A stretch of DNA of 63,287 nucleotides, counting the filler, from Aduncisulcus paluster (Eukaryota): assembly GCA_024181965.1 (NCBI GenBank). It is 5 parts of 5 records of this genome, joined end to end, with 100 filler letters (N's around TTAATTAATTAA, not from the genome) between each part and the next. Parts side by side here need not be neighbours in the genome. Positions count along the whole stretch, not along the records: positions 1 to 25,098 come from BQXS01010000.1; 4 more parts are not named here. One strand, given 5' to 3'. A program made the translations under genes and the position numbers. Of the stretch, positions 1,207 through 56,883 are shown piece after piece (the stretch's first letter is position 1; each line of letters starts with the position of its first letter). The notes under the pieces were generated by a model. That model saw nothing but the letters and a program-made list of their open reading frames with translations. It did not search any database and was not told the DNA's origin.

Positions 1207-1669
1207 GACTTGATAAAATCAATACTATTCAATACAAGCAAAAAAGCTTGATTGAAAATTCTCATTGCAATCAGTATTGGAGGAATTTTTAAATAATGTA
1301 AATCCATATGATACAACTTTATTTAAAATAATAAGATAACAATTATTTCGTTATTACCACAATCCGGGATTTCAAAGGTCCATTTGTTATCTTTTCTCCT
1401 GATCTTTATTTTTATTAGTTTTTAATTTAAATTTAACAAAACTAAAAAATAAAATATATTGTGAGTATCATAACTTTTGTATGCATATAAATTAAAGAGA
1501 TAGAATCTGAGATTTCCAGAGCAAAAAATTACCAAAAAAATAAACTAATTATAATATATTTTAATTTATTACAATCAACAAATCATTAATTAATTGACAA
1601 AACTTTTTGAATGCTTCTATAGCTGGTGTAGTTCAAGCCAATGTTATTTCCATCTGTCTTGCCAACATT

Positions 1670-3863: not shown

Positions 3864-6800
3864 ATGGCTAATTTATCTCAATATATTGATTTTAAACAGC
3901 CCATCTCATTTATTTCTCAACCGCAACTTTCTGGATCAACTGAATTGGCCAGAGCCAAAGAAATTGCGTATCTACCGTCATCAAAGAACAAATACCCTGA
4001 AAATGGTCCTATAAGAGGTCATTTACTTCTTAATACAGACACTGGAATGTTTGTGGTGAAGAAAAAAACCTTTAGGAAAGGTCATCCGACTCGTAAAGGT
4101 GGTTGGAGTGGAGATTTCTTGAATTTTATGCCCAAAGNNNNNNNNNNNNNNNNNNNNAACAGCCCATCTCATTTATTTCTCAACCGCAACTTTCTGGATC
4201 AACTGAATTGGCCAGAGCCAAAGAAATTGCGTATCTACCGTCATCAAAGAACAAATACCCTGAAAATGGTCCTATAAGAGGTCATTTACTTCTTAATACA
4301 GACACTGGAATGTTTGTGGTGAAGAAAAAAACCTTTAGGAAAGGTCATCCGACTCGTAAAGGTGGTTGGAGTGGAGATTTCTTGAATTTTATGCCCAAAG
4401 ATATTGGAGTTTCCAGTCATCAGCAACATCTTGTTTATTGCAATCGAGAAGTATGGATTAGTTATTCTAATCGTTATTTATGCAGTTTTCCAATTAATAC
4501 CCCAACTCCAAAACAAACATGTTCAATTTCATTGCCCAGCAATGTTATATCTCTTAATTCAGGTCTTATAACGCCTAATTATGATGTTGATGATGAAGTT
4601 TACAAATATTATTATGACAGTGTTTCGAGAGTAACTTCACGCCCAGAATCAGCCTTAGACGGATCTCTTGACCCCTTAATCGTTAAATTCAAGACTAAAA
4701 CGGGCGGATCAAAAGCTAGAGCGCCTTTACCCAAACCAAACACTCCAATCCTTTTGGTTCATGATGGTAGTAATAGGATCCACACAATTAACACTAAAAC
4801 ACATTCATTATTGTATACTTTAACACTCAAACGTGATTCAAAAGTTGCCAAAACATATGGAAAAACAAAGGGACCTTACGAGAGTATTTTTGCTGCTATT
4901 GCTGTAACTTCTGGCATATTTGCAATTGTAACTAACAAATATGTTTATTTACGTGACGTTTTGACTGGATCCCGCACAACCGGTCTGAGTGAAATTCCTA
5001 TTCCAGCAAACACTGAAAATCCAATATCTGAAGCGCATTCTTACCCCCGTCCGGTGTCAGTATGTGCTCAAAATGGTACATTATGTATTGGATATGATAA
5101 CGGGGAAGTATGTGTTATGTATGAGAAGGAAAGGTCGTTTAAAAATGTTTTCCAGGTCTTCCCACGATCGATCATTGATGGAAGTGAATCTTCTGAATTA
5201 GAAAGACACGATGGGAAATATAGCCCTGTTTCATTCGATGTAGAGAGGAAAAAACGGGTTGATTCATCCGAATTCCCTTCTTTCCAACCTCAACGCTCCA
5301 CACACATTCCATCGAGCCTTTCTGAGTCTATCTTGAGCGATCCATTGGTTTCAATGTGTCCAGATCTATCTTTACGACTAAATTCTGTCTTTCTCCTAGG
5401 TGGTTGTTTATGGTGCATTTCTCATGGAACCTACGGTCGTTCTCAGCATGCTCCATCTGTTTCTACAGTGAGTTCTGTGAGTATCATCCGTGCCATTGAT
5501 CTCAAAACAGGAGTTTGTGTCCTTTGCGAACGTATAAAAGCTATATTATATGGGTCAATACTAAATGAAACTCATTTGGCCATTTGGAGCTCAATCGGTC
5601 AATTATATGTTCTAAATGGACGCAAATGGGACGAGAAACAAGAAGAACTTATTAAATCAACCATTATATCGACTCAAGATACAAAATTATCAAAAACGAG
5701 TCACGCTGTTGACAAAATTGACACTTCTCAACCAGAAAATGTCCAAAATCACGTATTTAGTTCGACTATTGACTTATCTCCGCATGAAACCATTGACAAA
5801 CCAGTTGAATCCGACCGTTCCCAGGTTATTCAAGCCTTCCTTGATGGACCTTCGATTGAATCTAAGGAAGCTCAAAAAGATGCCGAAGAAGCCCAAATAC
5901 GTGAAAGAATGAATGCTTTTCTTCATAAAGGAATTATTGGAAATAAGAAAGAGGAAGAAAAAGAAGAAGAAGAAGGAGATGATAGATTAGGTTCTTCCGG
6001 TCTCTTTTTGGCTCAGAACAATCCAAAAATAGAAATATCTCCATCTTCTTCGAAAAAAGATGAAGAACTGGATCATCATATTACAAAGTATCATGAAATC
6101 TCACCCTCTGATGAAAATTGGAGAAATCACGGCGATATCGTTGTTTCGGTTACCAGTAGATCCGCCATTTTCACTCCTGTTGTCCACCCACCTCGAACTC
6201 CCATTTTCCATTGTTCTTTAGCTCCGATATGTCAAGAGATGGAAGAAGAAGTATCTGCCACCGAATTCGACTCAGACACATCAGAATCCAGCGTTGTTTC
6301 CATTCACTCGTCGAATGCAGTGACAAAAGATCAGAATAGGAATGAAACGTTTGAAATGGAAAGAATTGGAATGGATTCTGATCGGCAGATGGGTTCCATA
6401 CCATTACGTTCTTCACTTTCCCTCCCTATATCTCATCATTCTTCTCACAATTCTAATAATAGAACATCTTCATGCATAGTTTCTGGGTCCTCTTCCTCTT
6501 CTTCCTCTTCCTCTTCCTCTTCTTCTTCCTTACAACATATTAGTGGAGGGCTTGGTGCAAGTATTGTCAGAACTCCTGTACCAACGTCACATTTAGCCCA
6601 GAACAACACTTATTCTTTGGTTGCTCATGAAGAACAAAGCAGTCAACATTCTCCATCTTATTCGAGATCTGCATCTAATTCGAAATCAGTGCCACCGAAA
6701 TCCAATCTATTTTTAGAACAACAACCGAAACATCAAGAAATGTCCATTGCTGATCTGATTATTGGTGGTTCGGAACATCAAAAAGAAGAAGAAGAAGAAA

Positions 6801-11097: not shown

Positions 11098-12726
11098 ATG
11101 TCGTTAAAAGATTTTAAAATACTAAATATCCTTGGTAAAGGAAGTTATGGAACAGTTTATCGAGCTATACGACATTCAGATTCAAAAGAATATGCCATAA
11201 AAGAAATTAATGTAAAATATATGTCAGATAAAGAAAGAGAGGAGTCATTAAATGAAGTTAGGGTCCTTGCATCAATCTATGACCCTCACGTGATCGCATA
11301 TTTTGACTCATTTGCTGAAAAAGACAAATTATTTATTATTATGGAATATTCGCCAAAAGGAGATCTTAGCAAGCGAATCAAACAGAGGAAACTCTCAAGA
11401 AATCCATTTCCAGAGGATACAGTTTGGCTATTCTTCATCCAAATGTGCCTTGGGCTTCAAAGTTTACATAAAAAACATATTTTACATCGAGACTTAAAAA
11501 GCGCTAATATATTCATAAACGACGATAAAACTATTAAAATTGGTGACCTTGGTGTTGCCCGTGTTCTTAAAGGTAAAAATTCTCTTGCTAAAACCAGTAT
11601 TGGAACCCCATATTATATATCACCGGAAATATGGAGAAATGTTCCATACGATGCTAAAAGCGATATATGGTCTCTCGGTTGTTTATTATACGAAATGTTA
11701 ACATTTAAACATCCATTTGATGGTCGAGATATGCGCGGGTTGGCTCATGCGGTGTTACAAGGGAAATATCACCCAATTCCGTCAAGATATTCACGTGAAT
11801 TGGCATCTATCGTGGCTTGGTGTTTGCAAAGGGACTCTTCAAAGCGTCCGTCCATTGATGAAATATTAGTCCATCCTGCCATTCGTTCAAGACTTTCCAC
11901 TCTTCCTCTTTCGCCTTCCATAGTTGGATCCACCACTCCGCACTCATTGTGCCCCACCATTAAACTTGGAAAACGTTTTGGGGCTGTCAGAGTCCGTGGC
12001 GAACCAATTCTTCGAGATGTGAAGCTTCCATCTCCTGCCTATGAAAAACGACGTAAATACGAAGAAAGCATTCTTAAAGATTCACAGAGAGATCCCAAAT
12101 GTTACTCTATTCCTTCCAGTTTTGATGGTTCCTTTGGGACAGATCGTAGCGACAGTATATCTGTTAGTCTGAGTGGAAAAGACGGTTCTAGCCGTAAAAG
12201 TATCGGCAGCAGCGATGGACATTCCGGTTCTTCTGAATGTAAACAGCCCATTGACAGAAAAAAACCTCCCCCACAACCTATTAGTCGACCTTCAGCACGA
12301 CCTATTAGGGGAAGTGGCATTTCTGTCGTTAACTACTCTCCAAGAGGGCGTGAAAAGAAAAAAGGTCAATATCACGACGTTAGAGATCCAAGTCGAGATG
12401 GTAAAGCTTATATTGGACATAGACATTATAAAAGAAGCGGATCTGGCGAACAGCAGGATGAAATATACCGCCCAGTGATTCCTAAAGTTCCTCATCGTGC
12501 TCACAAACCATATGTTCGGTATTCTTCACGATCTGATCATGCCCAACAACAATCGGAGGCTGGTCCAGATTCTAGAATTCCGAGAGCTTTTGAAAAACAC
12601 TCATATCACCATGGAAAAGATTTGAAACACCCACTTCCGCCTGTTCCCAGAGATCAAGCTAGTTGTCTTGTCCAAGGTCCTATTCGACCGAGAAGGAGGA
12701 TGCCCTATGCTTATATGGGATATTAA
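11098..12726 (+). CDS. NIMA-related (NEK) Ser/Thr kinase, CNK2/NEK1-like
   Basis: LGKGSYGTVY, YAIKEI, EESLNEVRVLA, HRDLKSANIF, GDLGVARVL, IGTPYYISPE, KSDIWSLGC; basic disordered tail. Confidence 0.95.
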   Translation: MSLKDFKILNILGKGSYGTVYRAIRHSDSKEYAIKEINVKYMSDKEREESLNEVRVLASIYDPHVIAYFDSFAEKDKLFIIMEYSPKGDLSKRIKQRKLSRNPFPEDTVWLFFIQMCLGLQSLHKKHILHRDLKSANIFINDDKTIKIGDLGVARVLKGKNSLAKTSIGTPYYISPEIWRNVPYDAKSDIWSLGCLLYEMLTFKHPFDGRDMRGLAHAVLQGKYHPIPSRYSRELASIVAWCLQRDSSKRPSIDEILVHPAIRSRLSTLPLSPSIVGSTTPHSLCPTIKLGKRFGAVRVRGEPILRDVKLPSPAYEKRRKYEESILKDSQRDPKCYSIPSSFDGSFGTDRSDSISVSLSGKDGSSRKSIGSSDGHSGSSECKQPIDRKKPPPQPISRPSARPIRGSGISVVNYSPRGREKKKGQYHDVRDPSRDGKAYIGHRHYKRSGSGEQQDEIYRPVIPKVPHRAHKPYVRYSSRSDHAQQQSEAGPDSRIPRAFEKHSYHHGKDLKHPLPPVPRDQASCLVQGPIRPRRRMPYAYMGY

Positions 12727-15169: not shown

Positions 15170-18100
15170 TCACACACCACAATTTTCACAATATTTATGA
15201 AAATCATCATGGAAAATGGTAGATATTTCTCCCTCTTGTTCAATCATAATGAATTTAAGAAAAGGATGATGCTCCAACTTATGTAATATTTCCGTTTGAT
15301 GATCAGCACACCATCTCATGTCTTCTGTATATCTCGGGTGGAGTTCATCAACCAGCGAATTGACATTGGAAAAAGAATAAATTAATCTCGACCAAAAGAA
15401 TACACCAAGCCCAATTTCCTTCGTTTTGATGGCTCTGATCCATGGTTCCAGGAGATCGCCAATAATAAAATACAATTCCACAACAACTCTTTGCTCCAAA
15501 CATAAATTTGAGAGGAAAAATAAAAGGAAATAATTATCATTTTGGACAATAATATCACTAACGAGCTCTTCCTTTATCGTTTCTTGCATTGCAACGAATA
15601 AATCCCAAGTGTTTCTTGATATTGGTTCATACGGAGTATTATCGGGATTTGACCATGTAATATTTGCAAGGATATTAAACCACACGCCACAACATTGTTG
15701 TTTATAGATTGCAATTGTGAAAATCTCATTTATGTATGTTTGAATTAATTCGAAAAGCAAAGTTTTGGTGCTTAAGGAGTGTGATAATGATACTGTTTGG
15801 AAAAAAGCCGAAATCGCGGGAAAGGAGATTTTCATACTTTCAAATTTTTTCTGCCTTTCTCGATGAAGAATTCGACTGAAAGTTGAATAGATCTCCGGAA
15901 GGAACGAATCACAATGATCAGGAACTTTCATGACATAATTCACACAAATATTAAAATATGTTTCGGCAATTATTTCTTCAACATCTCCTTCCAACACTTC
16001 CTCACATCTTGAAAGATGACCAATGAAAGTGTCAATGAGATCATTTAGAACTGGATTAGGGAGATAAATAGGAACACCACGAAATTTTGAATGCATTACA
16101 AACAAGTCCAAACACTGAATGCAAATAACAATGGCCCTCTTATGCTCTATAATCTCACTCTCTGATTGGGATTCACTGAAGACAGATAGAATTTCTTCTC
16201 GATGCGTATGGTAAAGTATGGAGGTGGATTTCGAGTCAGGAGATTCGTTGATCGATTCAACCAATCCAACCCAGCGCTCCAAAGATGGGTATGAATTTTC
16301 AAAAAACCTTGAAAAATGAGAAGAATAACATTTGTTACCATTAACAACACACCATCGCATTTTCTTATCATATTTAGGTGATATTTGGGGAACAATCGAT
16401 GGAACAGTGGAGAGCATGGAAATGAGATTAGCCCAGTACACAATTCCCCATTGATGTCGTTTTCCCATTATTTTTTCAAACCAACCATCAAGAAGATCCT
16501 TAATGTTATCATATATTTCAATAAGATGTGATTGGTCTTGATTATGGCATAATCTGGAGAAAACCATTAAAACACATACATGATCATCCTCAAAAAGTTT
16601 ATCCCCAACAAACTCCTTCTTTACAACATCAAGAATAGGATAGAAGAGAGGCCAAGCTTTAGAACAAAGGGATTTGTTGGGGGACATGTTATCACTTGAG
16701 AGGGTGATAAATGATAGAATATACATCCATTCTCCATAACATACACTGCTTTTGTATATCCTCAACCAATCTTTGATATATGGTTGGATGAGGGTAAAAA
16801 TGGAATTTCGACAGGAGGTATCGGAAACAATAACCATGTTTCGAAGAGTTCCCAAAATATTTCTTGCAATATTGCCTTCTAACTTCTTCTTTCTTCCTTG
16901 ATCAAGAATACATTCGAAAGATGGAGAAACCTTCTCAAAGAACAACGATTGACATTTAACTTTGAAGGTATAATTAACACAGATCTCACAATACGCTTCA
17001 TAATATTCTTCATCAATATATTCTTTCAATAATTCTTTCGATAGGGTATCGAGAAAAGTGCTTATCAAATCATCAAGATCAGAAATAGGAAGATAAATAC
17101 CGGTTTTAGACGGAAAATGGGCAACAACCCAGTGTTTAACAAACCATCTCAAACATTGAATACAAAGAACGATCTCTTTCTTATTTTCTGAAACCTCTTC
17201 AATCGTACTCTTTGTTTTAGAAGCATCGAAGACAGAACGAATCCCATCTCGATGTTCACGGTAAAGTTTGGAAGTTGATTCTGGATCAGGACATTTCTCA
17301 ATAGATTCAGCCAAATTGACCCATTTCTTCAGGAAAGGATAACAATTACCAAGATACCTCGAATAAACTTCACTATATTCTCCATTTATATAGCACCATT
17401 CCTTGCACCATTCCATACTGGTATCATATTTGGGAGATATCTCAGGAACAAGAGATGGAACAGTAGAGAGCATGGAAATAAGTCTGGACCAGTATTTGAT
17501 TCCCAATTCATGCTGGTTCCGCTTTATAACCTCAAACCACCCATCAAGAAGATCCTTTACATTATCATAGATTTCAAGGGCATGTCCTGGATCACAACAT
17601 AAATTGGAGAAGAACAGTAATACCAATTCATAACCATCCTCAACAATCTTATCCCCAATATACTCTCTCTTAACAACATCAAGAACAGGGTGGAAGAGAT
17701 CCCATATTTCAGAACAGATAGATTTGTTGGGGATATTGTCTTCATTAGACCAGGTAATACTTGCAAATATCTTCACCAACTCTTCAAATTCAGAAAAACT
17801 ATACTCAATATCTGAGGACCGATTTTCTTCGATGTAGGGCTTAATAATTTCAAAAATTTCTTTTTTCACTTGGTTTGGAGCATTTTCAGAAATGGAAATA
17901 TTCCGAAGAGTTACAAGAATGTGAATATAGTTTTGTGAGGCAAGTATCACCTTTCTTCCCCTTTTAATAATTTTTCCCAATGGTTTAGAGATTTTTTTAT
18001 AGAGTTTAGAATGACAAATATCCTCGCGAAAATCCGAAAAATTTCTACAAATTTCACAAAATTCCTCTGTTATGCAAGGACTTAATTTCTCTTCAATTAA

Positions 18101-19520
18101 AGATAAATCTTCGATAATATCTTCCATTAATTCAAAAAAATATGGATCAGAAAGATAAATATCAGTTTTGTTGAAACGATGACATGTAAACAATACAAGA
18201 CATTGGCAACATATCCTAATTTCACACTTTAATTCAATAATCTTATCGGGATCATAATACTGATTGTTACAAATATATTTTATACACTTTCTAAAGACAT
18301 TGAGAAACAAAGTACGATTATTTTCTTCTGAACCCGGATACATATGCATTAAAAGTCTGGTTTTGGATACGGTATCTGGGCATTTCTTTATATCTTTGAT
18401 TAATACAGCCCATTTATCAAGTGATTTGGGATGACAATTACTCAAATAATTCAAATAGTCACATTCACTTGAACCAACATTTAGTTTACACCAAAGCATA
18501 AATTGGTCAAATTTTGCATATATAAATTCAACGAAAGCAAGATTATTTGAAAGTTGCGAGATAAGTTGCGACCAATATTCGAACCCTCTTTGATGCCTCT
18601 GAAGTTTAATTGCTTTAAACCATTCTTTAAAATAACTTTTGAGTTTTTCGTACACTTCAGAACGGTGAGTTTCATCGGAACATAAACGAGACAAGAATAA
18701 TAACACAAATTGATGATCATATTTCAAAATAGATTTCCCTCCAAATTTTCTAACAATGACAAAAATATCATACATTGGCCAAGAATCAGCATCGCAAATA
18801 GAGCCAAATGGTGCATCATCTTCACTTGACCATGTTAAATGAATGAAAATCTTTATCCACTGCTCAAAGCATTTCTCCTCAATTTCATCATTCAAATGGT
18901 TCGCAAAATATTTTAACCACTGTTGAGCGAATGGTCTGACAAAAGAATAAAATATAGTTTGTTTCGTGGATTTCAAAGAAGTTCCAGCGATGTTTCTGAG
19001 AGTATAAAATAGACGTAAATATGTAGAAGATGGAATATCTTCTAAACAATGATATTCTTGATCTCCTTTTTTCTCTTGACGTTTGAATGGTTGAAGAATG
19101 TTCACAAAAGTTGGGGATATTTTTTGTAAAAAATCATGATATGTGGTCACTTCTTGCGTCCATTTATCATGAATTGTATATGTATTGAAAGTAAAATTCA
19201 TGCAAATATCACAATAATCTTCATCAACATCTCCTTGCAAAACTTTCTCGACATTCGACAAATGATTCATGAAAGTGCTTACAAGATGATTCATGTCAGG
19301 AATAGGAAGATAAATCGTATTTCCAGGAATTTCATGTCTAACAAACCAACGCAAACACCGGAAACAATGCCGCATGAGATTTCTTTGCATTTGAAATTCC
19401 TTATCTTGGGAATTTTCTGGGAATTTCTTGAAAGATTCAAAACAATTGAGGATTAACGGATGAGTTTTTCGGTAAAGTTTGGATTTTGACTCTGGATCTG
19501 GACATTCTTTAATGATTAAC
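15170..19520 (-). repeat. Four coding tandem repeats of ~1050-1120 nt (~350-375 aa), preceded by a truncated unit (~20010-19520)
   Basis: Unit starts near 19504, 18382, 17293 and 16243. Shared motifs: CxxCLxxFVxH..IYLP, YCxICxN, TLRNI, ITWS..DN.P, WSxLISxLS, KYDxxMxWC. Confidence 0.9.
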
Positions 19521-21694
19521 ATGATATTTTTGATCATAACCAATGGAATTCTTGAAAAATAATCATTTTTCAGTGGATTCTTAGCCAAAGTGGCTACATC
19601 TTGATAATTTGACACAATTTTATATAAAAATTTTGTTATGGGAATTACACTATCAAATAAACTTTGCTCATCATCTAACTCAATGAAAATTTCCTCAATT
19701 TCAACCATCAAATCAAAAAATTGATCCATTATTTCAGTTGCATGCTTTAATTTAAGAGTGACAACTCTATATTCAACAGGAAATGAACAAGGGCTTTTTG
19801 TTGGGATTATATGCAGAATGAATGATGCTAAACATTGGAATAGAATAGTAAAATATTCTTGTGAGACGAAGGGAAATCGATACTCACGAGAAGGAATGGC
19901 TGAGAAAACCCGTTTAACTTGCATGAAACAATTTTGTATACTTGGCAATAACTCAAAAAAAAGATCTGTCACTGATTCCGTCGAATTGGTTTCTTCAATG
20001 CGTTGAATCAATTTTTTAAGTTTAAGCAATGTCAATTGAGGTTTCTTCACGCTAATGGATGATTCTGAATAAGATGAAAAATTTTCATTCCGAATTGAAG
20101 CTGTTTTTGAGTGTTGCATTGTTGAGGAAGAGGAGGATGAAGCATGTTGTTTCCCTGATGAATTCAAGGGTTCAACTTCAGTGGTTTCATAATCAGAACC
20201 ACTTTCAACAGAATTAGGATTCATACATCGGCCATCATCAATTTTATCACATTCATCAATTGTGATTTCGATTGGTTCACAAGGAAGTTGTTCTGGAGCT
20301 CTGAATTGTTTAAATTTGTTTTCAATAATTTCATCGATGGTTGGACATTTCCACCCTTCTCCAATCCTTGGTAACAAATGCTTGATGGATTGTACTTTTT
20401 CACATGCTTTATGGACACTCATACGCCTTTTTACATTATACTCAGTCAAACCTTCATATACTTCATTCAAACATTTGTAAATGGGTGTGAACATACCACC
20501 TTCAATGGTTATGAGGGATTCAAACAGAGGAGAGAATGAAAGTTGAGGCATAAAACCTATTTTCTGGACGCGACACAACAATTTTGCGAAACTGGGCAAA
20601 TCTTCGTAATGCGATCTTAATAAAGGCGAGGAAGAGAATGGATCTCCCCCTCTAAACAACGCAAGAATACTCATGCCAAGTGCGTAAGCATCACTCTTTT
20701 GACTGTGCTCTCCATATAAAGCTTCGTGAGAATTGTATGCAAGAGTTCCATATAACGATTGATCAGAAATATGAGACGTTATCTTCATTATTTCCTTGGG
20801 TTTTGTTCCAGGATATTCCGAGGATATAGAACAATAATGTTCCTTCACAACACTCTTGGAAGACATCTCAGAAGAAATGGAATCAAGAACACGAACAATA
20901 CCAAAATCGCCCAAGACAATAGTGAATTTCTCGTTCGTTCTTCCAGGATTCTCCACTCTAACCAAGAAGTTGTCAGGTTTAATATCTCGATGAACACAGC
21001 CAGGATTTGCTCTATATACATCATCAAGACATTCAATCATTCCAACACAAATGGCTGCAATTCTCAGAGGGTCGAGAGTTGTCAGGGGATCAAATCCAAA
21101 ATACCCATAATTTAAACCAGAATCTAATTGCGAATAATGATTTTTGACATCAAATGATTCCTCGATCTCTCCTTTCGACTTTTCTTTCTCACCTTCTTCT
21201 TTCTCATCTTCTTCTTCCTCATCTTCTTCTTCCTCATCTTCTTTTTCTTCACCTTCAGGATGTAGGACATTATTATTATCAGTAGTATGCTGACCACTAT
21301 GTTTTCTTGCTCCCCAATTTTTTGAGAAAGATCTTATGCTGCCCCCGATACAAAATTCCATAACAAACCCAAACACTCCATCAAAACTCTTGGGATCAAG
21401 AAGGTCAAGAATGAAAAAGGGACGGGGAATTCGCATGGAACAATGCCGGAAAAGCTCAATTTGAATCATGAATTCTCGGAAGAAATTGTTCCTGGCATTT
21501 TCATTTTTGGGGATCATTTTCTTCAGAACATAGAATTCGGGATCACCACCGTTTTCATAACGAATGAGTTGAACTTCTCCCAAACCAGATTCTCCAAGCT
21601 TTGCTAATGGAAAGATGCAAGATCTAGGATTGAGAATGTAAGATTCTGGCAAGATCTGTTTCTCATCAGATTGTTCACTTGATGACTTTTCCAT
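15170..21694 (-). CDS. 2174-aa protein: N-terminal protein kinase plus tandem giant alpha-helical (ARM/HEAT-like) repeats
   Basis: Kinase motifs LGESGLGEV, YVLKK, HRDIKPDNFL, LGDFG, GTLAYNSHE, SDAYALG, with an acidic insert. Repeats begin CPDPESKSKLY / CPDTVSKTRLL / CPDPESTSKLY / SPDSKSTSILY. Confidence 0.92.
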   Translation of the reverse strand: MEKSSSEQSDEKQILPESYILNPRSCIFPLAKLGESGLGEVQLIRYENGGDPEFYVLKKMIPKNENARNNFFREFMIQIELFRHCSMRIPRPFFILDLLDPKSFDGVFGFVMEFCIGGSIRSFSKNWGARKHSGQHTTDNNNVLHPEGEEKEDEEEEDEEEEDEKEEGEKEKSKGEIEESFDVKNHYSQLDSGLNYGYFGFDPLTTLDPLRIAAICVGMIECLDDVYRANPGCVHRDIKPDNFLVRVENPGRTNEKFTIVLGDFGIVRVLDSISSEMSSKSVVKEHYCSISSEYPGTKPKEIMKITSHISDQSLYGTLAYNSHEALYGEHSQKSDAYALGMSILALFRGGDPFSSSPLLRSHYEDLPSFAKLLCRVQKIGFMPQLSFSPLFESLITIEGGMFTPIYKCLNEVYEGLTEYNVKRRMSVHKACEKVQSIKHLLPRIGEGWKCPTIDEIIENKFKQFRAPEQLPCEPIEITIDECDKIDDGRCMNPNSVESGSDYETTEVEPLNSSGKQHASSSSSSTMQHSKTASIRNENFSSYSESSISVKKPQLTLLKLKKLIQRIEETNSTESVTDLFFELLPSIQNCFMQVKRVFSAIPSREYRFPFVSQEYFTILFQCLASFILHIIPTKSPCSFPVEYRVVTLKLKHATEIMDQFFDLMVEIEEIFIELDDEQSLFDSVIPITKFLYKIVSNYQDVATLAKNPLKNDYFSRIPLVMIKNIMLIIKECPDPESKSKLYRKTHPLILNCFESFKKFPENSQDKEFQMQRNLMRHCFRCLRWFVRHEIPGNTIYLPIPDMNHLVSTFMNHLSNVEKVLQGDVDEDYCDICMNFTFNTYTIHDKWTQEVTTYHDFLQKISPTFVNILQPFKRQEKKGDQEYHCLEDIPSSTYLRLFYTLRNIAGTSLKSTKQTIFYSFVRPFAQQWLKYFANHLNDEIEEKCFEQWIKIFIHLTWSSEDDAPFGSICDADSWPMYDIFVIVRKFGGKSILKYDHQFVLLFLSRLCSDETHRSEVYEKLKSYFKEWFKAIKLQRHQRGFEYWSQLISQLSNNLAFVEFIYAKFDQFMLWCKLNVGSSECDYLNYLSNCHPKSLDKWAVLIKDIKKCPDTVSKTRLLMHMYPGSEENNRTLFLNVFRKCIKYICNNQYYDPDKIIELKCEIRICCQCLVLFTCHRFNKTDIYLSDPYFFELMEDIIEDLSLIEEKLSPCITEEFCEICRNFSDFREDICHSKLYKKISKPLGKIIKRGRKVILASQNYIHILVTLRNISISENAPNQVKKEIFEIIKPYIEENRSSDIEYSFSEFEELVKIFASITWSNEDNIPNKSICSEIWDLFHPVLDVVKREYIGDKIVEDGYELVLLFFSNLCCDPGHALEIYDNVKDLLDGWFEVIKRNQHELGIKYWSRLISMLSTVPSLVPEISPKYDTSMEWCKEWCYINGEYSEVYSRYLGNCYPFLKKWVNLAESIEKCPDPESTSKLYREHRDGIRSVFDASKTKSTIEEVSENKKEIVLCIQCLRWFVKHWVVAHFPSKTGIYLPISDLDDLISTFLDTLSKELLKEYIDEEYYEAYCEICVNYTFKVKCQSLFFEKVSPSFECILDQGRKKKLEGNIARNILGTLRNMVIVSDTSCRNSIFTLIQPYIKDWLRIYKSSVCYGEWMYILSFITLSSDNMSPNKSLCSKAWPLFYPILDVVKKEFVGDKLFEDDHVCVLMVFSRLCHNQDQSHLIEIYDNIKDLLDGWFEKIMGKRHQWGIVYWANLISMLSTVPSIVPQISPKYDKKMRWCVVNGNKCYSSHFSRFFENSYPSLERWVGLVESINESPDSKSTSILYHTHREEILSVFSESQSESEIIEHKRAIVICIQCLDLFVMHSKFRGVPIYLPNPVLNDLIDTFIGHLSRCEEVLEGDVEEIIAETYFNICVNYVMKVPDHCDSFLPEIYSTFSRILHRERQKKFESMKISFPAISAFFQTVSLSHSLSTKTLLFELIQTYINEIFTIAIYKQQCCGVWFNILANITWSNPDNTPYEPISRNTWDLFVAMQETIKEELVSDIIVQNDNYFLLFFLSNLCLEQRVVVELYFIIGDLLEPWIRAIKTKEIGLGVFFWSRLIYSFSNVNSLVDELHPRYTEDMRWCADHQTEILHKLEHHPFLKFIMIEQEGEISTIFHDDFHKYCENCGV

Positions 21695-22450: not shown

Positions 22451-23428
22451 TCATTCATCATCCTTTGCTTCATCATCCTCACAAATCTTCTCTTCTCCTT
22501 CCTCCTCTCCTTCCTTCTTTTCGTTTTCATTGTCCTCTTCAATCTTCTTTTGTGTCATTTCTTCAAGAGTTACCACTTTCTCTACTTCTTCCTCTTCCTC
22601 TTTTCTCTCTTCCTCTTCTTTCTCTTCTCCCATTTGTTGGGGAGGAACAATCACAGCAGGAGTCATGGGAACATGCTCAGGTCTTTCAGAGAAACCCTTT
22701 TTCCCAGCTTCTTTGATATTCTTGTTGACACACGCAACCATGGGCTCTCCAAACTTATATCCGAGCTGTTTTCTCTGATCTCCTGTGACGAACACAGCGC
22801 ATGGACGAAGATATTCACATGCCAATCCGACTTCCATGTGTTGATCCAAATCAATTCCTCTGACTTCAACTTGGGATTTTACAGCATCGGTAAGTTTGAC
22901 AATCTCTTCAACTTCATCATCATCATCACCATGGTAAGAAACAATCAAACCTATCTTCTTTGAAGGAGGGCAAGTAATGAATCCATTGTGTTCTTCAATG
23001 GATTTCAACATAATTGGGAGACTAGGATTCACTGGTTTCTTGGCTTCACCTTTAGATTCGAGTTCTTTCATCTCTTCTATCTGTTTGGTGGCTTCAGCAG
23101 CATATTCGGCATATTTGTCGGCAAATTCATCGTATTTCTTGATTATGGAACGACGACCGATAAGACGAGCAATACGAATACCTCTATAGAAGAAAGCAAC
23201 GGCGGGACCATTCTTGAAACCAAGTTTTTTGGCCAATTCAACGTTGTCAGCACCAACAACAAACTTCTTATTAATAGTCCTTCCAGAAGCCTCAGCTAAC
23301 ACAGCATCAGAGGCTTTGTCGCCTTGTTTCACAAATAATACAACGCAAAGGTCGTGGAGGTCCTCCAAATTGATTTCTTTGGAGTATTGGGAGGGTTCAA
23401 TAACAGATTTAGAATTAGTACAGCCCAT
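22451..23428 (-). CDS. Dually acylated protein with two degenerate thioredoxin-like domains and an acidic tail (~325 aa)
   Basis: True start is probably MGCTNSK (G2/C3/S6 acylation signature). Trx-like segments ADNVELAKKLGFKNGPAVAFFYRGIRIARLIG and VRGIDLDQHMEVG; no CxxC. Confidence 0.7.
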   Translation of the reverse strand: MGCTNSKSVIEPSQYSKEINLEDLHDLCVVLFVKQGDKASDAVLAEASGRTINKKFVVGADNVELAKKLGFKNGPAVAFFYRGIRIARLIGRRSIIKKYDEFADKYAEYAAEATKQIEEMKELESKGEAKKPVNPSLPIMLKSIEEHNGFITCPPSKKIGLIVSYHGDDDDEVEEIVKLTDAVKSQVEVRGIDLDQHMEVGLACEYLRPCAVFVTGDQRKQLGYKFGEPMVACVNKNIKEAGKKGFSERPEHVPMTPAVIVPPQQMGEEKEEEERKEEEEEVEKVVTLEEMTQKKIEEDNENEKKEGEEEGEEKICEDDEAKDDE

Positions 23429-24565
23429 TATGAAAAATAGTTGGTAATTTAATGAATAAAATCTCTTAAGTGGTGTAAAGGGTAACAAAACGCGATAAAC
23501 GGGTGGAAAAAAAAAAATTGACGTCAAGAAACGAAGCAATTCCTTGACAATGAAAGGAAAAGAAAAACAATAACAAAAAAAATCATAATGATTCTTTAAA
23601 TTTTTCGGGGAACTTGGATTTATTGACGATTTTAAACGAAACAATCGATTTTGGCGTGAATGGAAAGATTTCCAATATATTTGTTTTGATGAAGAAATGT
23701 GTTGTTCCACTGTTTAGAGAGAAATATTAATTTTTCATTTGTTTGATTACATTTTACATGTTGTTTTTTCCAATCAGTGTGGGCCAACCAAACCAAGAGG
23801 TAATTAATCAACATATTTAAAAACAAGCAAATATTGGTGGAGTTTTTGATTTGTGTATTTTATTTTTTCGCTGCTTTGATTTCAGCCGTAATATTTCACA
23901 CTGTGAATTTTATGGCATGGAATAATTAGAAATAACTAGAAACTGGGTATTTTCCCACGATACAATCTTAATTAAGAAGTATATTCCCAAATTATCTGAC
24001 TCTACATTCGGATTGTCCAGAATTCCTGTTCGAGAGAGCAAAAACTCTGGGCTACCACGACAAAAAGAAAAAAAGAAGCAAAGATGATGGAGAAAAGCAA
24101 TCAATAACAAATAGTAATGTTAAAAAGAGATACAATAAAATCACCAATATTAGAAAAAAAGGAAAAATTGTCATTGTCCAATAGAACAAATAAAAAAGCT
24201 CAATTAGGGTATAAATAATTCATAATGTCACATTTAATTTCAAAAAGTTCGAAAAATGAAATGATAATATTATATTGAAACGGTCAGCCCGTTGGAGTCC
24301 AAAGAAAACCGAGATGGGGGGTTCTTTTGTTTAAAAAACTTGTAAATTTTAATAATTTCTTCATGTGAATTTAGCAAAATTAGATATTTCTATCTATAAA
24401 TGGAAATAATTCAACTCATTTTCCCTTTATCGCAAAAATAATCATCTATTATTATAATGGAGAAATATCGACCAATTATAAGACATTCTCCATCAATATA
24501 AAGCCATAATATAATGTAAAACAGAGTAGTTCTTGTGTAATTTTTCTGGTTATTTCTCCAGACTT

Positions 24566-25098
24566 TCAATTGATGAATACAGAGATATTCTTCATTATAT
24601 GTGTCCAATGCAGAAAGAACTTCTTGTCAGGATACTTCTTCATCCAAGGTAAGATGTGAGGGAGAAGAATGGATAAAAGGGAATCCTTAATGGAATTGTC
24701 TTTGGCAAATGCGATAGACCTACATGTCTCGAGGATATCTTCAACAAGGGAATCCTCAAATTGCTCAGACAATCCAAGAACTAACATCTTAGAGAGAAAA
24801 GGGTAGATAATTTCACAGATATCACAATGAACTCGTGTATTTTCCCACAGAGCATAATGTAATAGTAAAAATAGAGATCGAACAAGGGGATTAATGGTAT
24901 CAGAACCAATGTCGGTAATAATACAACGAGGATTCTTTTGATCTTCTTCTTCGTCATCATCATATAGAACTGCGATTATCTTGATCACATCAAAGATCTT
25001 ATCATAAAATTTACCTTCTGCTGTGCGAAAAACATTATCTTCTAAATAAACAGCATTTAATTCCTCTTGAGATTGAAGGGGAGATTTTGTTTTTGAGA
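24566..25098 (-). CDS. 3' fragment of a helical-repeat protein related to the repeats of the 2174-aa kinase; 5' end cut by the contig edge, stops mid-repeat
   Basis: Frame is open from 25098. IIYPFLSKMLVLGLSEQFEDSLVEDILETCRSIAFAKDNSIKDSLLSILLPHILPWMKKY..FFLHWTHIMKNI aligns by eye to repeat 3 KVSPSFECILDQGRKKKLEGNIARNILGTLRNMVIVSDTSCRNSIFTLIQPYIKDWLRIY..CYGEWMYILSFI. Confidence 0.65.
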
Positions 25099-25198
25099 NN
25101 NNNNNNNNNNNNNNNNNNNNNNNNNNNNNNNNNNNNNNNNNNTTAATTAATTAANNNNNNNNNNNNNNNNNNNNNNNNNNNNNNNNNNNNNNNNNNNN
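25099..25198. other. Artificial contig linker N44-TTAATTAATTAA-N44
   Basis: Six-frame-stop palindrome inside Ns; identical at four sites. Confidence 0.98.
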
Positions 25199-32526: not shown

Positions 32527-32626
32527 NNNNNNNNNNNNNNNNNNNNNNNNNNNNNNNNNNNNNNNNNNNNTTAATTAATTAANNNNNNNNNNNNNNNNNN
32601 NNNNNNNNNNNNNNNNNNNNNNNNNN
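32527..32626. other. Artificial contig linker N44-TTAATTAATTAA-N44
   Basis: Same linker as 25099-25198. Confidence 0.98.
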
Positions 32627-34610: not shown

Positions 34611-37600
34611 TCATTTATGCTTCATTCTATGTTCGATAACTCCCAAACACTCATGGCATACGTATTGAGCTCCTTTCTTTTTCGATTCGCTATCCTTTTT
34701 CCAGAAATCGGAAAGACCTAACGTTTGGACATCTTTCTTTGTGCAGCATTGTCCACATGCATTACGTCCACAAACACGGCAATGATGTCTTCTTCTTCTC
34801 AAACTAAAATCATTGTGACAAACTTGACACCGTTTCAACTCCCTAATCCACGTTGGTTCCCTTGAAATATTACGGATAAGTAACATAACCATTTCTTTCT
34901 TTGGAGAAATGATGTTAAACACAGTCTGCTGATTGTTATTTTCAATTCCAACATCAGCTCCATGTTTAAGCAATACAGTTGAAATATGAGCATATCGTTC
35001 TGTTTCTGATCTAAGATTGGACACGGCCCTAAACAAAGCGGTGCGTCCCTGTTTATCTTGGGCATCTATATTGATGGCAACGCCAAAGGATAAAAACTCT
35101 TCAACAGTCGTTCCAATTCCATTAGAAACCAAAAGATGCAACGCAGTTTCTCCCTTCGCATTCCTTGCATTTACATCGACCTCCTCTGGATTTTCTTTGT
35201 AATATTTCAGCAATTTAAACAACAATTCAATATTGTGAGATGCGGCAGCCTTGTGAAGCGGAAGATCACCATCACTGTCTTCTTTCGAGAGATCTGCACC
35301 ACCCTTAAGAAGAGCATCCACGACTTTTCCACTTCTGTTATTGAGAATGGCAAGGTGGATGGGACAAAGACCCTCCATATTTGTAGGGTTCTGGGGGCTT
35401 CCATATTCGTACAAAAGCCGAACAATCTCAGACGAAGCATCCGAGGAGGAAGAGGATCTCGCAGCCAAATGAAGAGCTGTGTTTGCATGGAAATCTGGGA
35501 CAGAAACGACAGCAGCAGTGTCGAACTTGGAGCGACGTGAAGAAACAGCCAAAATATCACACAAATCATCCACTTCGGACATGGAAAGGATGCCCTCGGT
35601 ATTTTTGGCAAGAACGTGGCGATCTCCAACACAAAGAGCAATAAACAGCAAGTTTCCAACGCTTGCTGCAGTATGGATGGGTGTTCTACTCTTCGAATCA
35701 GGAATAGAACGGAGATTAGAATCACTCATTATCAAGTGATAAGCAAGCCGAATGACTCTTCTCCTCCTCTCCCATTTCACTAACAATTCTCTCTTTAAAC
35801 CAGAGTTATCAATCAGTCCTTTTTCCTTCACAAGCCGGTGGAGCATGGTTTCACCTTTCAAAGTGACCTTTTGGGTGCTTAGGGTGCATTGGGGAGATGC
35901 AAGTTTTGATAAACACGCAGCTAAGGCAAGAGGAGAAGGACACCAAGTCAAAGATGTGGAAAGAACCGAATGCTGGAGAGTTCCAAGATCAGTGAACGTA
36001 ATCGCCCCATACACCTCCCTTTTACCAATTTCAGCCCCCTTCCTGAGTATCCATTCAACACCAGCCTTATATCCGTGCTTAAGGGCAAGAAGAAGCGGAG
36101 TGTATCCCAAAAATGTCCTTGCAGAGGTCAGCAAAAGAGGAGAATTGGTGTGCAAATGGTGTAGCAATGCGAGCGGATGATGGACATGGGGATGAGATGA
36201 AGAAGGAAGAAGAGATGATGAGAAAGCAGAAATGATCGAGGAAGGCAGAGAATCGCTTGCAGAAGAGTTTGAGGATGAACCAATCTTCAATATCCTTCTC
36301 TTTCGTTCCTTCTTCACCCTTTCTTCCTTCCTTTCCCTAACCCTTTCTCGTCTACCTTCCTCTAAACAGATCTCCACTTCTCTTCTCGCCTTTCTCTCAT
36401 TCTCAGAACTCCACAGAGACAAACCAGAAGAATACAAGTGAGACAATGACCGCCCCATTGTATCGAACATACGTACATACCCGTCTGAAGTCGTGATAGC
36501 AAGAGGAGTGAAGGGTTGGATCGGAACTGATGAACCCAGGACAGGAGGCAATGGCGTTGAGATAGCTTGTGAAGAGAAAGGAGATGAGGATGAACCGCGT
36601 CCCCTACTCTGTTGCTGGGCTTGAGATGATAAGTCTGTGCCCATGTCATACATACCAATACTCATGGGACTGAAAGCTCCGTCCTCCTCAAATACGAGCG
36701 ATGTGGGTTGATGATTCATAATAGAGTCATCCTCAGAAACGGGTAGACTGGTCCTCCCATGTTCACTACTGCTCTCCCCCTGACCAACAGGGACCATTCC
36801 ATCTTCTTCAGTGCGCTCTCCATATAACGAAGACAAGACGTGGGCAGTGTTAACAGACCAAGTGGTAATGGAAGGAATGGAAGGTGCACACATGGAGACA
36901 CAATCACCAGATCCCCAAAACACGACACGAGGGGTTGACTGTGGCTCAGACAGGGAGAATACGACAGCCAGGGAGGGATATGAGCGTTGTTTCAATTTAG
37001 ATGCCCTCTTCTTCTCACGCATTTTCCACCTCAATCGTCTAAACCTCCTTCTCTTGAGGCCAAGAGCAACTCCGCCAATTCCTAATCCTCTTTCCCTCTC
37101 TCCTCTTACCCCTTCTCTGGGCCCTTCCATGAAACTTACAGTACTATCCTCAATTCCACTCACTTCACCCCCTCCCACGAACACTTCACTCATCTCTCCG
37201 TCACCAGCGGTGCTTTGAGACACATCAGCTGAGGATTCGAGCCCCACAATTGAGGAAAGATCAAGGAAAGAACTTCCCTCTTCATCACAAATGGATCTTT
37301 CGATAGAGGATCCAAGAGATGCACGTGATTTTCCGAGACCAAGAGAGGCTAAGAATTCCTTCTCTTCTGCAAGTTCTTTCTCAGAATCAAACCCATCTTC
37401 ATCCTTTTCCTTTAATAATACCCACACAGATGGCCAACAGCACACGACATCAGAAACATACACGTTTGAAGGAAGTGAAGGAGCAAACGAGGGAGTAATA
37501 CGCTTCGTATGGGTGGAATGGAGTTCTTTAGGACTGACAAGAGTGCATGAAGCCAATGAATGAACATGAATGGATGATTTGAATAGGGTTTCATAATCAA

Positions 37601-40600
37601 AAGAATATGCAAATGTTCTTCTCTTCTTACGCTTCTTCTTCTTTCCATTTTCCTCATTGCCTGCCTGTTCCTTTTCTTTTGTCTCATCTTCTTCCTTTTC
37701 TTCGAGTTTTGAGGCAACTTCCATTTCATCCTCTTCAGAGCTTGAAGCAATAGACGACTGATGTAATTCATTCGTTTGAAGCAATTCTGTACCATCACTT
37801 TCATCCCCATCAGATATAAGGCTTGATTCTTCATCGTGCCAATCTTCTTCATCGCGAAATTCATTTCTCAACCGCTCTTCCTCTTCTCTCCTTCTCCTCT
37901 CCTTCAACATTTCATTATCAAAAGCAGATTGTTCAGATTCTCGCTTCTTAAGTTCCTTTTCTCTTTGTATTTTTTCACGTTCGCGCTTTTGAATCCTCTC
38001 TTTCCTCTCTTCTTCTCTAATAATCTGCCAAGGGTCGACAGAAATGTCCACAACAAGGATATTTCTTCCATGAAGCCCAATCCAGAGAACCTCTCCAACA
38101 CATATGATCTCCCTTTCATTTTGAGGAGTACCGGCCAGAGACGACAAAGAATCGTTAGCGCCGACACTCAGAACCGGACAACCTCTTTCATATCTCAAGA
38201 CACAACCCACGCTCTCTCTGTCCTCGAGGAAAGCATGAACGAGTGAAGGAGGGATGTATCCTGATGTGGCTAAGAGTGTTGACAAGGATGACGTGGAGGC
38301 AGATAGGCTAGAATATATGGAAACAGATCCAGGGGGTGGCGAAGAGGTGCTAATGCGAGAAGAGTGACTCTTCAAAAGATCTGAATGTTTCAAAAGACCA
38401 AGGCTGGAAGCTGCAGGTACAGATGCAAATGATGAAGCTCGATATAAATGCGAATAATGGTCAGATTGAAGTTTAAACACACATACAAACTCATCTACAT
38501 CATCCTCCTCTTCCTCTTCACGTTCTGAAGAAATTGGTTTAGTAGTTTGTCCATATTTACCTCTAAATGTGCTCTGGGTTGCTGTTTTTTGCTCTCTTTC
38601 CTCCCAACGTTTTTCTTTGGCCCTGATCTTCTCGTCACGATGTTCGTAAACACATACTTGTCCATTTGTCTCACACAGACATGCAATAACAATGTCTCTT
38701 CCACCGACTTCCATCGGAATGAGCTTTGTGGGTAACATGGGTATATCTGATTTGGATAGAGAGAAAGATTCGTCGGGTTTGTTTCCTTTCTTTCCTTTCT
38801 TTTCCTTCAATTCCTTTTTCTGCCTCTTCTTAACGGGAGAACTCATGTCAATGTTAAAGGTATATATCAAAGAATATTCGACAACTGTTTGTGAAGCAAG
38901 ATTTCTGTGTTCTCTTCTACGACGGCTTCGTTCTCCTCTTTGTTCCTTCTTATGGTCCATTCCACCAACTTTAAGTCGTTCAACCCTTTCAAGGATGTGA
39001 CAACGACACAATTCATCACACACACAGACACGAGTGGCATCAACTTCACAAATACACACAATACCAATGGAAACACTGGACATGGAAGTGGATCCGGGAG
39101 TTAGAGGAGTCGAATAATCGCTGGTGGGACCTGCAATATCATACCCAAGTTCACCCGTTATTCCTCCAATCGGAGATATTGGGGATGGAAGGGGAATATT
39201 CATGATATACTCAAGATCTCCATTGCTCTGGTTCAAAACACTCACATTACTCCCACTGTGTTTAGCCACACCAGACACATCCAAGGGAATTTCATGCTTA
39301 CATGTTGGACTGACCCAAGTCCACACAGAACCATGGACGGAAGCAAATGAAGGGAACGGCCTTGAGGGCCATGGAATGCCAGCATGTGAAGCCAATGAGA
39401 TAGNNNNNNNNNNNNNNNNNNNNTTCAAAACACTCACATTACTCCCACTGTGTTTAGCCACACCAGACACATCCAAGGGAATTTCATGCTTACATGTTGG
39501 ACTGACCCAAGTCCACACAGAACCATGGACGGAAGCAAATGAAGGGAACGGCCTTGAGGGCCATGGAATGCCAGCATGTGAAGCCAATGAGATAGGAACA
39601 TATGTACCAACCTCAGCTACTTGCATATCATGATATTTCCCCTTACCATGTTCCTTTGTTCCTTTCCTGAAGGGACGTTGAGATATGGAATCGGGTGACA
39701 ATAGTCCTCTTGGATGAGAACTATGAGGGGGATGAGAGGTGTGATGACGAGAAGATTTGTAATTTGAATGTGGCGTGTACAGAGCTCTAGAAGACTCTCC
39801 ATGACGAGAGTGACGAGTACGATGAATTGTTGTGATCTCTTCATGCGGTGCAGGCAAATGTTTGTGAGATAAGTGGAATATCTTTTTGTAAGTGGCATTG
39901 TTACCTTGAGAAAGAACAATATCGACACATGAACCAACTGAAAATCGATTCCCGTTGCTCCCAGCCTTAATGGCAGCCTCCAGAACATCACGAGAAACAC
40001 CTGAGGTATGAGAATAAGTATCGAGTAAATCCTCAGTCTCGTCTTTATCATGCAAATCAAACGCAAGGACGATGGACCACATGTAGTGATCAGCGAAGAA
40101 TGAAGACAGAGGACGTAACACGGAAAGATTTATGGGAGTATTCTCATTGATAACCATCGGGGAAGACTGAACAGTATTTGGAATATCAGCTTCTCCTTTA
40201 GTGCCCTTCCTGGCTTCTTTCGGTCTGTCCGTCTGACCAGAATCATTCACAAGATCATCTGCACCTTCTTCCCTCAACTTCCTTGACATCACCAAGACTC
40301 CACTCACTTTGCCTCGAGCAGAGTGCAAAGGGGCTGGGATATTCAATCTCCTTACCAGGGTTGGGTAAAACACATCAGGGAGCGAGTGTGTTGATGTATG
40401 CCCTTTTCTTTGGACAACCATACTGCTATAAGGACCCACACAGAGGAGAGGAGTTAGTGCTGTAGTGTCGAAGAGAGGTTGGATTCTTGGGTGAGCTAGG
40501 TGGAAAGCAAAGAATCGAAGAAGGTTAGGTTTCACAGAATAAACACCTTCCATCCCACCAACCTCAACGAGGACCTTGACACATCCAATGTGACCATATA

Positions 40601-42696: not shown

Positions 42697-42796
42697 NNNN
42701 NNNNNNNNNNNNNNNNNNNNNNNNNNNNNNNNNNNNNNNNTTAATTAATTAANNNNNNNNNNNNNNNNNNNNNNNNNNNNNNNNNNNNNNNNNNNN
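42697..42796. other. Artificial contig linker N44-TTAATTAATTAA-N44
   Basis: Same linker. Confidence 0.98.
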
Positions 42797-56783: not shown

Positions 56784-56883
56784 NNNNNNNNNNNNNNNNN
56801 NNNNNNNNNNNNNNNNNNNNNNNNNNNTTAATTAATTAANNNNNNNNNNNNNNNNNNNNNNNNNNNNNNNNNNNNNNNNNNNN
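56784..56883. other. Artificial contig linker N44-TTAATTAATTAA-N44
   Basis: Same linker. Confidence 0.98.

Follow-up and report, generated by a model that had tools for sequence, protein, structure and literature searches.

A divergent kinase joined to tandem domains of predicted armadillo type in a large, mosaic gene family of Aduncisulcus paluster

What kind of protein is made when a divergent kinase is followed by a series of very long helical repeats, and what might such a protein do? The question was raised by a single open reading frame (ORF) in a stretch of 63,287 nucleotides of DNA (hereafter the window) from the genome of Aduncisulcus paluster (GenBank assembly GCA_024181965.1), a little-studied free-living flagellate and a fornicate related to Giardia. 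A preliminary description of this gene had been made from the sequence alone. The gene encodes a cytosolic modular protein, in which an N-terminal kinase and a Ser-rich linker are followed by one truncated and four full domains of predicted armadillo type. The unit of about 1 kb is the piece that is duplicated. The gene itself is a mosaic: its central block of about 1.8 units is canonical-like and 60-88% identical to many paralogues, and the units on either side are old and divergent, reaching 35-68%. The coordinates of all features are given in Table 1; proteins collected during the analysis are designated by P numbers.

The boundaries of the repeats were placed with a hidden Markov model (HMM) of the unit, and the full units measured 344-374 amino acids (aa). 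Segment-wise BLASTP comparisons between units gave E-values as low as 4.6e-47, and the start-to-start spacing of the units in the DNA was 1050, 1089 and 1122 bases. HMM and BLASTP agreed on one truncated and four full units, the number counted in the preliminary description. The layout of a kinase followed by a partial unit (model positions 3-134) recurs in P0018, P0019, P0023 and P0027, and a near-identical one was found in P0073 and P0074 (positions 3-131 and 2-138, respectively). No paralogue match to most of the linker was obtained, namely in sliding windows starting at residues 451, 481 and 511. The array of the window protein ends in a short tail; in some members (P0038 and P0040) the last unit is followed by some 150 conserved aa (alignment columns ~440-660), to which no family was assigned.

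The fold of the unit was predicted with AlphaFold2 from a 39-row alignment composed of unit 3, the other three units and 35 family proteins. A confident all-helical model of unit 3 was obtained, with a predicted local distance difference test score (pLDDT) of 91.6, a predicted TM-score (pTM) of 0.90 and a small beta-hairpin inserted at unit residues 65-79. The model was compared with 48,161 chains using VIA-align. The best match was p120 catenin (3l6x_A; Z 22.6, root mean square deviation (rmsd) 3.3, 311 of 350 residues aligned), followed by plakophilin-1 (1xm9; Z 22.3) and the importin-alpha Kap60 (2c1t; Z 22.1). Further matches were designed armadillo proteins, SPAG6-like axonemal proteins, beta-catenin and APC. 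Foldseek returned eight matches with E ≤ 0.001; the designed armadillo protein 4rv1 was matched with E 1e-4 and a TM-score of 0.65, and importin-alpha was matched too. On the strength of the catenin, plakophilin, Kap60 and Foldseek matches, each unit of about 350 aa is predicted to be a complete armadillo-repeat domain, so that the array would be repetitive at two levels. The preliminary description had spoken of giant helical repeats; on the predicted model, these are not a new kind of repeat and have a known fold. Its remark that the units are far longer than ordinary ARM, HEAT or TPR units holds, because each unit would contain a whole armadillo-repeat domain.

The likeness to the three proteins (Z 22.1-22.6) extends over the whole unit, with 298-311 of 350 residues aligned and an rmsd of 3.0-3.4, at an identity of merely 6-10%. 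The unit differs from them in three respects: it has no Pfam match to Arm or HEAT, it carries the beta-hairpin, and it occurs as tandem copies of the whole domain. The Pfam negative was obtained with the units at E up to 10 and with the whole protein at E up to 1. When the whole protein was scanned, kinase models came up, together with three chance rows below threshold and nothing else. The units gave no family above cut-off and merely chance rows such as DUF5856, TSR and GSKIP. PF27444 is a precomputed label on P0004 and P0005; it was not confirmed, the family being outside the Pfam version scanned. No internal period of about 42 aa was found when the quarters of the unit profile were compared with hhalign (probability at most 5.8%), and the predicted armadillo sub-repeats are no longer recognisable by sequence. 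The ESM Atlas gave weak HEAT/ARM-like leads for the unit (recognition 1561, under the 2300 mark). Units 2-4 were also modelled jointly. This model (pLDDT 85, pTM 0.59) is helical across the unit borders, with the relative orientation of the units uncertain. Its good structural matches mostly stop at the limits of the middle unit (~360-711), so that the units behave as discrete domains. We read the predicted array as a chain of discrete armadillo domains without flexible linkers.

The kinase is, as judged from its residues and profile matches, a very divergent, Ser/Thr-type member of the eukaryotic protein kinase superfamily. Pfam Pkinase (PF00069) matched residues 212-432 with 44.9 bits (cut-off 31.7; E 1.2e-11), and the N-lobe was seen only by PK_Tyr_Ser-Thr (residues 32-280), below the cut-off of that model. 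The preliminary description spoke of an apparently active but atypical kinase, and both halves of this statement were borne out. The catalytic set is present (K58, alpha-C E74, H235-R236-D237, N242 and D263-F264-G265), as are D335 and R424 in the family kinase alignment. K58, E74, the HRD motif at 235-237, N242, D263 and G265 are invariant in 11 aligned family kinases, and F264 is variable. The domain therefore looks catalytically competent. It departs from the canonical GxGxxG in its G-loop, G34-E-S36-G-L-G39, where Ser takes the place of the second Gly. The sequence YNSHE stands at 320-324, with S322-H-E324 in place of APE, and SxE is found at this site family-wide. The activation segment comprises 58 residues.

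The signature of the family kinase consists of GxGGFGEV, VLKK, KEFxxQ, HRDIKP[DE]N, SxE for APE and, in most members, DLG or DHG, where this gene has DFG. Of the 36 proteins with a kinase, among which this gene is counted twice (P0001 and P0002), 26 have HRDIKPxN, x being mostly D or E; eight of the remaining ten are N-terminally truncated fragments. The family kinase is far removed from every kinase of solved structure. Against Protein Data Bank (PDB) sequences, the kinase of this gene gave a best match of only E 7.5e-5. The family kinase profile matched HRI best (1.6e-10), then CDPK1 and Aurora; no Nek was found among the best 60 of 222 matches, no Nek-specific model or tree being used. In the ESM Atlas, the nearest named clusters to the kinase were all Pkinase, which is a lead only. 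An ordinary, well-conserved kinase is encoded 2.4 kb from the divergent one (11098-12726, + strand; Pfam Pkinase E 9.1e-68) and illustrates, beside the 44.9 bits of the latter, how far the family kinase has drifted.

No signal peptide or transmembrane segment was found in the whole protein, as the preliminary description had said: its N-terminus is hydrophilic, and the Kyte-Doolittle mean over 19 residues nowhere exceeds 1.59. The same description called the gene intronless. The frame does read open straight through, and the public model of the same gene, ADUPG1_006656 (P0002, 1849 aa), predicted with BRAKER2, has an intron of 975 nt. P0002 matches the window protein exactly at residues 1-973 and over its last 875 residues, and the 325 residues between are missing. 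In the public model, the excision leaves a single hybrid unit whose front comes from unit 1 and whose back comes from unit 2. The intron is probably a modelling error and the stretch coding, because it is open and encodes good unit sequence (unit HMM, translation) and because one contig of run X2 (record 14) spans 17690-20349 unbroken, without a joint over the putative intron. X2 is RNA by guess only. With this reading, the analysis corrects a public gene model.

The extent of the family was then determined. Three word-based searches, the first with the repeat region, returned 28, 10 and 58 rows, and all 96 (28/28, 10/10 and 58/58) were from A. paluster. A nine-row profile of the unit was searched against 1.84 billion representative proteins (E ≤ 0.001), a library in which relatives of more than 50% identity are collapsed. 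It gave 98 matches, 85 of them at E ≤ 1e-10 and 71 at E ≤ 1e-30. Twenty-nine were already known A. paluster proteins and 69 were new. The sources of 30 of the 69 were established: 28 came from A. paluster, one was the window's own neighbour and one was an LRV-repeat protein from a metagenome. The last (P0141), the sole match from outside A. paluster among the 59 of 98 matches of known source, was taken as spurious because it matched only on repeated 26-residue stretches. No true relative of the unit was thus found outside A. paluster among these 59, and on sequence evidence the family is known so far only in this species.

A protein was counted as a family member if it had at least one unit of 340-375 aa matching the unit HMM, with or without an HRDIKPxN/SxE kinase. 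The window gene belongs to the family, with five unit HMM matches and a kinase. The refined HMM matched 144 of 146 collected proteins and gave 351 unit matches (P0002 excluded), with 1-8 per protein. About 143 gene models bear the unit, which is about 1% of the 15,316 models of A. paluster. The family is thus large, and the lineage-specific character proposed for it in the preliminary description is supported. A kinase accompanies the unit in 36 proteins, corresponding to 35 genes, and about three quarters of the family models lack one. The kinase mostly precedes the units; in a few models it comes after them, perhaps as a fused neighbour. Other partners of the unit are leucine-rich repeats (LRRs) with a kinase (P0028), zf-C2HC (P0112) and RRM (P0135). 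The count is a minimum, given that the assembly has draft status (N50 4.6 kb, BUSCO 40.4%, 15,316 gene models; genome announcement) and that the library collapses relatives above 50% identity.

All members whose source names were seen carry hypothetical or misleading automatic names. Two of the automatic names are not supported by Pfam scans: no cullin-binding domain was found in P0035, named 'Defective in cullin neddylation', and P0100 matched no family. Besides the cullin name, the automatic names in the family include 'Proteasome activator Blm10', 'Telomere-associated protein R…', 'RTM2-like small heat shock protein' and 'TFIID subunit 6 like'. In P0072 (ADUPG1_012142, partial), precomputed Pfam annotation pairs the kinase with a reverse transcriptase (PF00078); this gene model may be fused with a retroelement. 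The family was not described in the titles and abstract openings of the A. paluster and Aduncisulcus papers listed or in the main text of the genome announcement, supplements aside.

Divergence along the array is patchy, and the ends of units 2 and 3 are alike even in DNA, both as described previously. Two DNA repeats join these units (200 nt at 70% and 172 nt at 77%). Their C-terminal thirds share 60% protein and 71% DNA identity, and the other thirds and pairs share 20-48% protein identity. The rates of nonsynonymous (dN) and synonymous (dS) change in this third are 0.29 and 0.83, the latter being the lowest found; elsewhere, dS is 1.0-3.6 or saturated. The dN/dS ratio is about 0.35 in this block, the only one where it was measurable.

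Sliding windows of 60 residues of the window protein were compared with 144 paralogue models. Residues ~1291-1920 showed 56-83% identity to the best paralogue, and the window 1321-1380 alone had 44 paralogue matches of at least 75%. Unit 1, early unit 2 and late unit 4 showed 35-57%, the exception being a single window of unit 1 with 70%. Identity to the closest paralogue unit was also scored in 34-column bins of the unit alignment. It was 41-68% per bin in unit 1. Within unit 2, it steps from 41-47% in columns 1-204 to 79-88% in columns 205-339; within unit 4, from 62-85% in columns 1-136 to 35-53% in columns 137-339. Conservation along the unit is nearly flat over the family (0.40-0.53), so that constraint alone does not account for these steps. 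A patch at residues 391-480 with 81-90% identity to P0077 was considered as a trace of exchange and rejected: it is the family-wide conserved C-terminal extension of the kinase, and constraint on this extension explains the similarity.

Contigs of two runs, X1 and X2, were aligned to the gene (514 and 146 contigs, respectively). Summed contig depth reached about 4 to 110 times the single-copy level in certain bins of the central block and kinase, which means that many other contigs contain stretches at least 95% alike. Two contig joints were seen, from 16668 to 17445 and from 20371 to 21018, the short side being merely 20-31 letters. In a tree of 149 near-full units, the first units of many paralogues form one separate clade, and part of the array is therefore old. 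Units of the same protein cluster in several cases (units 2-4 of P0006, the two full units of P0018 and of P0043, and the first two of P0042), which argues for repeated local duplication or homogenisation. The window gene's own units are on long branches. Taken together, the identity steps, the dS pattern, the unit tree and the contig depth indicate that paralogues have exchanged blocks, through either gene conversion or unequal crossing-over. In line with the repeat shuffling or conversion suspected earlier, unit duplication and mosaic ancestry are visible.

Table 1. Features of the kinase-armadillo gene and of the family fragment on the same contig. Positions are those of the window; residues are those of the window protein.
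Feature	Position	Strand	Residues	Remarks
Whole ORF	15170..21694	(-)		Single open frame, 2174 codons + stop
Divergent eukaryotic protein kinase (by sequence) with conserved C-terminal extension	20360..21619	(-)	~26-445
Acidic low-complexity insert between the kinase lobes	21155..21262	(-)	145-180
15-nt tandem DNA repeat (family D5)	21182-21256			Within the acidic insert
Ser-rich linker	20027..20287	(-)	470-556
Truncated unit	19544..20026	(-)	557-717	Unit model positions 2-111, i.e. first third
Unit 1	18419..19540	(-)	719-1092	Divergent; predicted armadillo-type domain
Unit 2	17330..18418	(-)	1093-1455	N-terminal 60% divergent, C-terminal 40% canonical-like
Unit 3	16280..17329	(-)	1456-1805	P0030; unit modelled as armadillo-repeat domain
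Unit 4	15248..16279	(-)	1806-2149	N-terminal 40% canonical-like, rest divergent
C-terminal tail	15173..15247	(-)	2150-2174	25 aa
Putative intron of the public model	17799..18773	(-)		975 nt, GT..AG, in frame; reads open throughout
Canonical-like central block	15860..17797	(-)	~1300-1945	~1.8 units; nearer many paralogues than the flanks
Depth-spike bins in the central block	15824-16041, 16042-16259, 16260-16477, 16478-16695, 16696-16913, 17350-17785
Second family member, fragment (P0147)	24569..25098	(-)		Unit model positions 102-200; hmmsearch E 2.8e-24; contig end

What such a protein does is probably best explained by armadillo arrays that serve as binding scaffolds and place or regulate the kinase, in an expanding and recombining family. 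The arrays would act as protein-binding scaffolds, and would either anchor the kinase at certain partners or structures of the cell or serve as its gate. Differences in unit number and sequence would give paralogues different addresses or substrates, and the kinase-less members may act as adaptors or competitors. The family appears to grow and change by duplication of whole units and by block exchange between paralogues. Several points weigh against this explanation. The scaffold or targeting role is drawn from the usual roles of armadillo domains and from the analogy with Giardia. The kinase is atypical in its GxSxxG, SHE for APE, acidic insert and activation segment of 58 residues, so that it may be weak or oddly regulated. 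Transcription of the gene is putative: X2 contigs cover it, and X2 is RNA by guess only. The family counts come from draft-genome models that contain errors, such as the intron of this gene and the models in which the kinase follows the units. Finally, the unique contigs break in or beside shared stretches, and the mosaic could be a mis-join of paralogues. On this last account, the mosaic, and possibly the unit count, would have arisen when unique pieces of paralogues were mis-joined through near-identical stretches by a short-read assembly made from 150-bp paired reads of ~500-bp fragments (genome announcement). The breaks of the unique X1 and X2 contigs, at 16000-16021, 16715-16807 and 17545-17725, do fall in high-depth shared bins near the identity steps. 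The unique pieces are, however, of equal depth (1134-1326 in X1), the second identity step (near 15856) lies inside one contig (15170-16000), the shared stretches between unique pieces are short (~20-180 nt) and bridgeable by read pairs, and the frame is open over 6.5 kb. We regard such a mis-join as distinctly unlikely.

The family may also be mainly structural, its arrays building the flagellar or cytoskeletal apparatus and its kinase being vestigial or merely regulating assembly. That most models lack a kinase agrees with this, and axonemal armadillo proteins were among the best structural matches (7n6g, 8glv, 8j07, 9fqr and 9e5c), although these may share the fold alone. The catenin and importin matches were equally good, however, and the retention of the catalytic residues throughout the family speaks for selection on kinase activity; the structural role is judged unlikely. 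The preliminary description had favoured cytosolic receptor-like kinases resembling immune sensor-effector proteins. In such an intracellular recognition repertoire, dozens of kinase-armadillo genes would swap blocks of ~0.1-2 kb, the variable arrays would sense prey, symbionts, viruses or other foreign molecules, the kinase would signal, and shuffling or conversion would maintain diversity. The large, so far single-species family with its variable copy number is what this would predict, as are the mosaic gene, the DNA patches at least 95% alike with many other contigs, and the combination of LRRs, kinase and one unit in P0028. The Pfam scan of the window protein found no NACHT/NB-ARC, TIR, death-fold or other sensor or oligomerisation domain, dN/dS is about 0.35 in the sole measurable block, and the fusion of the unit to zf-C2HC and RRM suits a general scaffold better. 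The sensor-effector role was not upheld, and we consider a recognition repertoire, immune-like or not, very improbable. If it were true, a free-living bacterivorous flagellate would possess a system resembling innate immunity, with armadillo domains instead of LRRs as its basis.

The scaffold reading has counterparts among known proteins. Fused/STK36, ULK4 and plant MAP3K-epsilon combine an N-terminal kinase or pseudokinase with a long ARM/HEAT solenoid that is thought to be a scaffold; they are conserved genes present in one or few copies. The A. paluster family differs from them in having about 140 members, in one species, with a duplicating 350-aa unit. A closer parallel is the Giardia expansion of Neks, TALM-ankyrin proteins and Protein 21.1, as given in its published account (PMC3218828). 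There, 198 Neks are reported, most with long ankyrin runs, together with kinase-less Protein 21.1 relatives. Tagged Neks were found at distinct cytoskeletal sites, and deletion of an ankyrin repeat relocalised one of them (PMC3218828). Going by the same account, the two systems are alike in that both are very large, lineage-specific families of kinase and alpha-solenoid repeats in a fornicate, both include many repeat-only relatives without a kinase, both show very high sequence divergence, and in both it is proposed that the repeats determine location or interactions (PMC3218828). They differ in that the Giardia repeats are 33-aa ankyrin repeats and those of A. paluster are armadillo-type super-units of 350 aa. 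Most Giardia Neks are described there as inactive, whereas nearly all A. paluster family kinases retain the catalytic residues. Unlike the Giardia kinases (PMC3218828), the A. paluster family kinase could not be assigned to Nek on the best 60 of 222 PDB profile matches.

The surroundings of the gene were examined as well. Paired runs of 44 N with 12 bases between them mark contig joins at 25099-25198, 32527-32626, 42697-42796 and 56784-56883, and the contig of P0002 measures 25,098 bases. Only positions 1-25098 are therefore true context, and the genes beyond are not neighbours. Single runs of 20 N (e.g. 4138-4157) look like scaffold gaps. Besides the gene described here, the contig at 1-25098 carries a TPR protein, the ordinary kinase and several ORFs to which Pfam assigned no family. 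The fragment of a second family member at its end (P0147) suggests that family members may be clustered in the genome. The frame of this fragment hits a stop after model position 200, owing to an intron or to truncation. An ORF at 22451-23710 (-), without a match in Pfam, has an acidic tail and an internal start, MGCTNSK, that may be an N-myristoylation motif. On another contig, an ORF at 34611-42626 (-) encodes 2671 aa without a match to the unit HMM or to the family kinase.

Kinases fused to helical solenoids were already known, as was the lineage-specific kinase-repeat expansion in Giardia. What is new is that the armadillo super-unit is the duplicating piece, that the family is so large and has so far been seen in a single species, and that the gene has a mosaic structure. 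The finding suggests that kinases with solenoid arrays underwent expansion on more than one occasion within Fornicata, both in a parasite and in a free-living organism. The predicted armadillo identity of the units, the kept catalytic residues and the mosaicism give the family a function that may now be tested.

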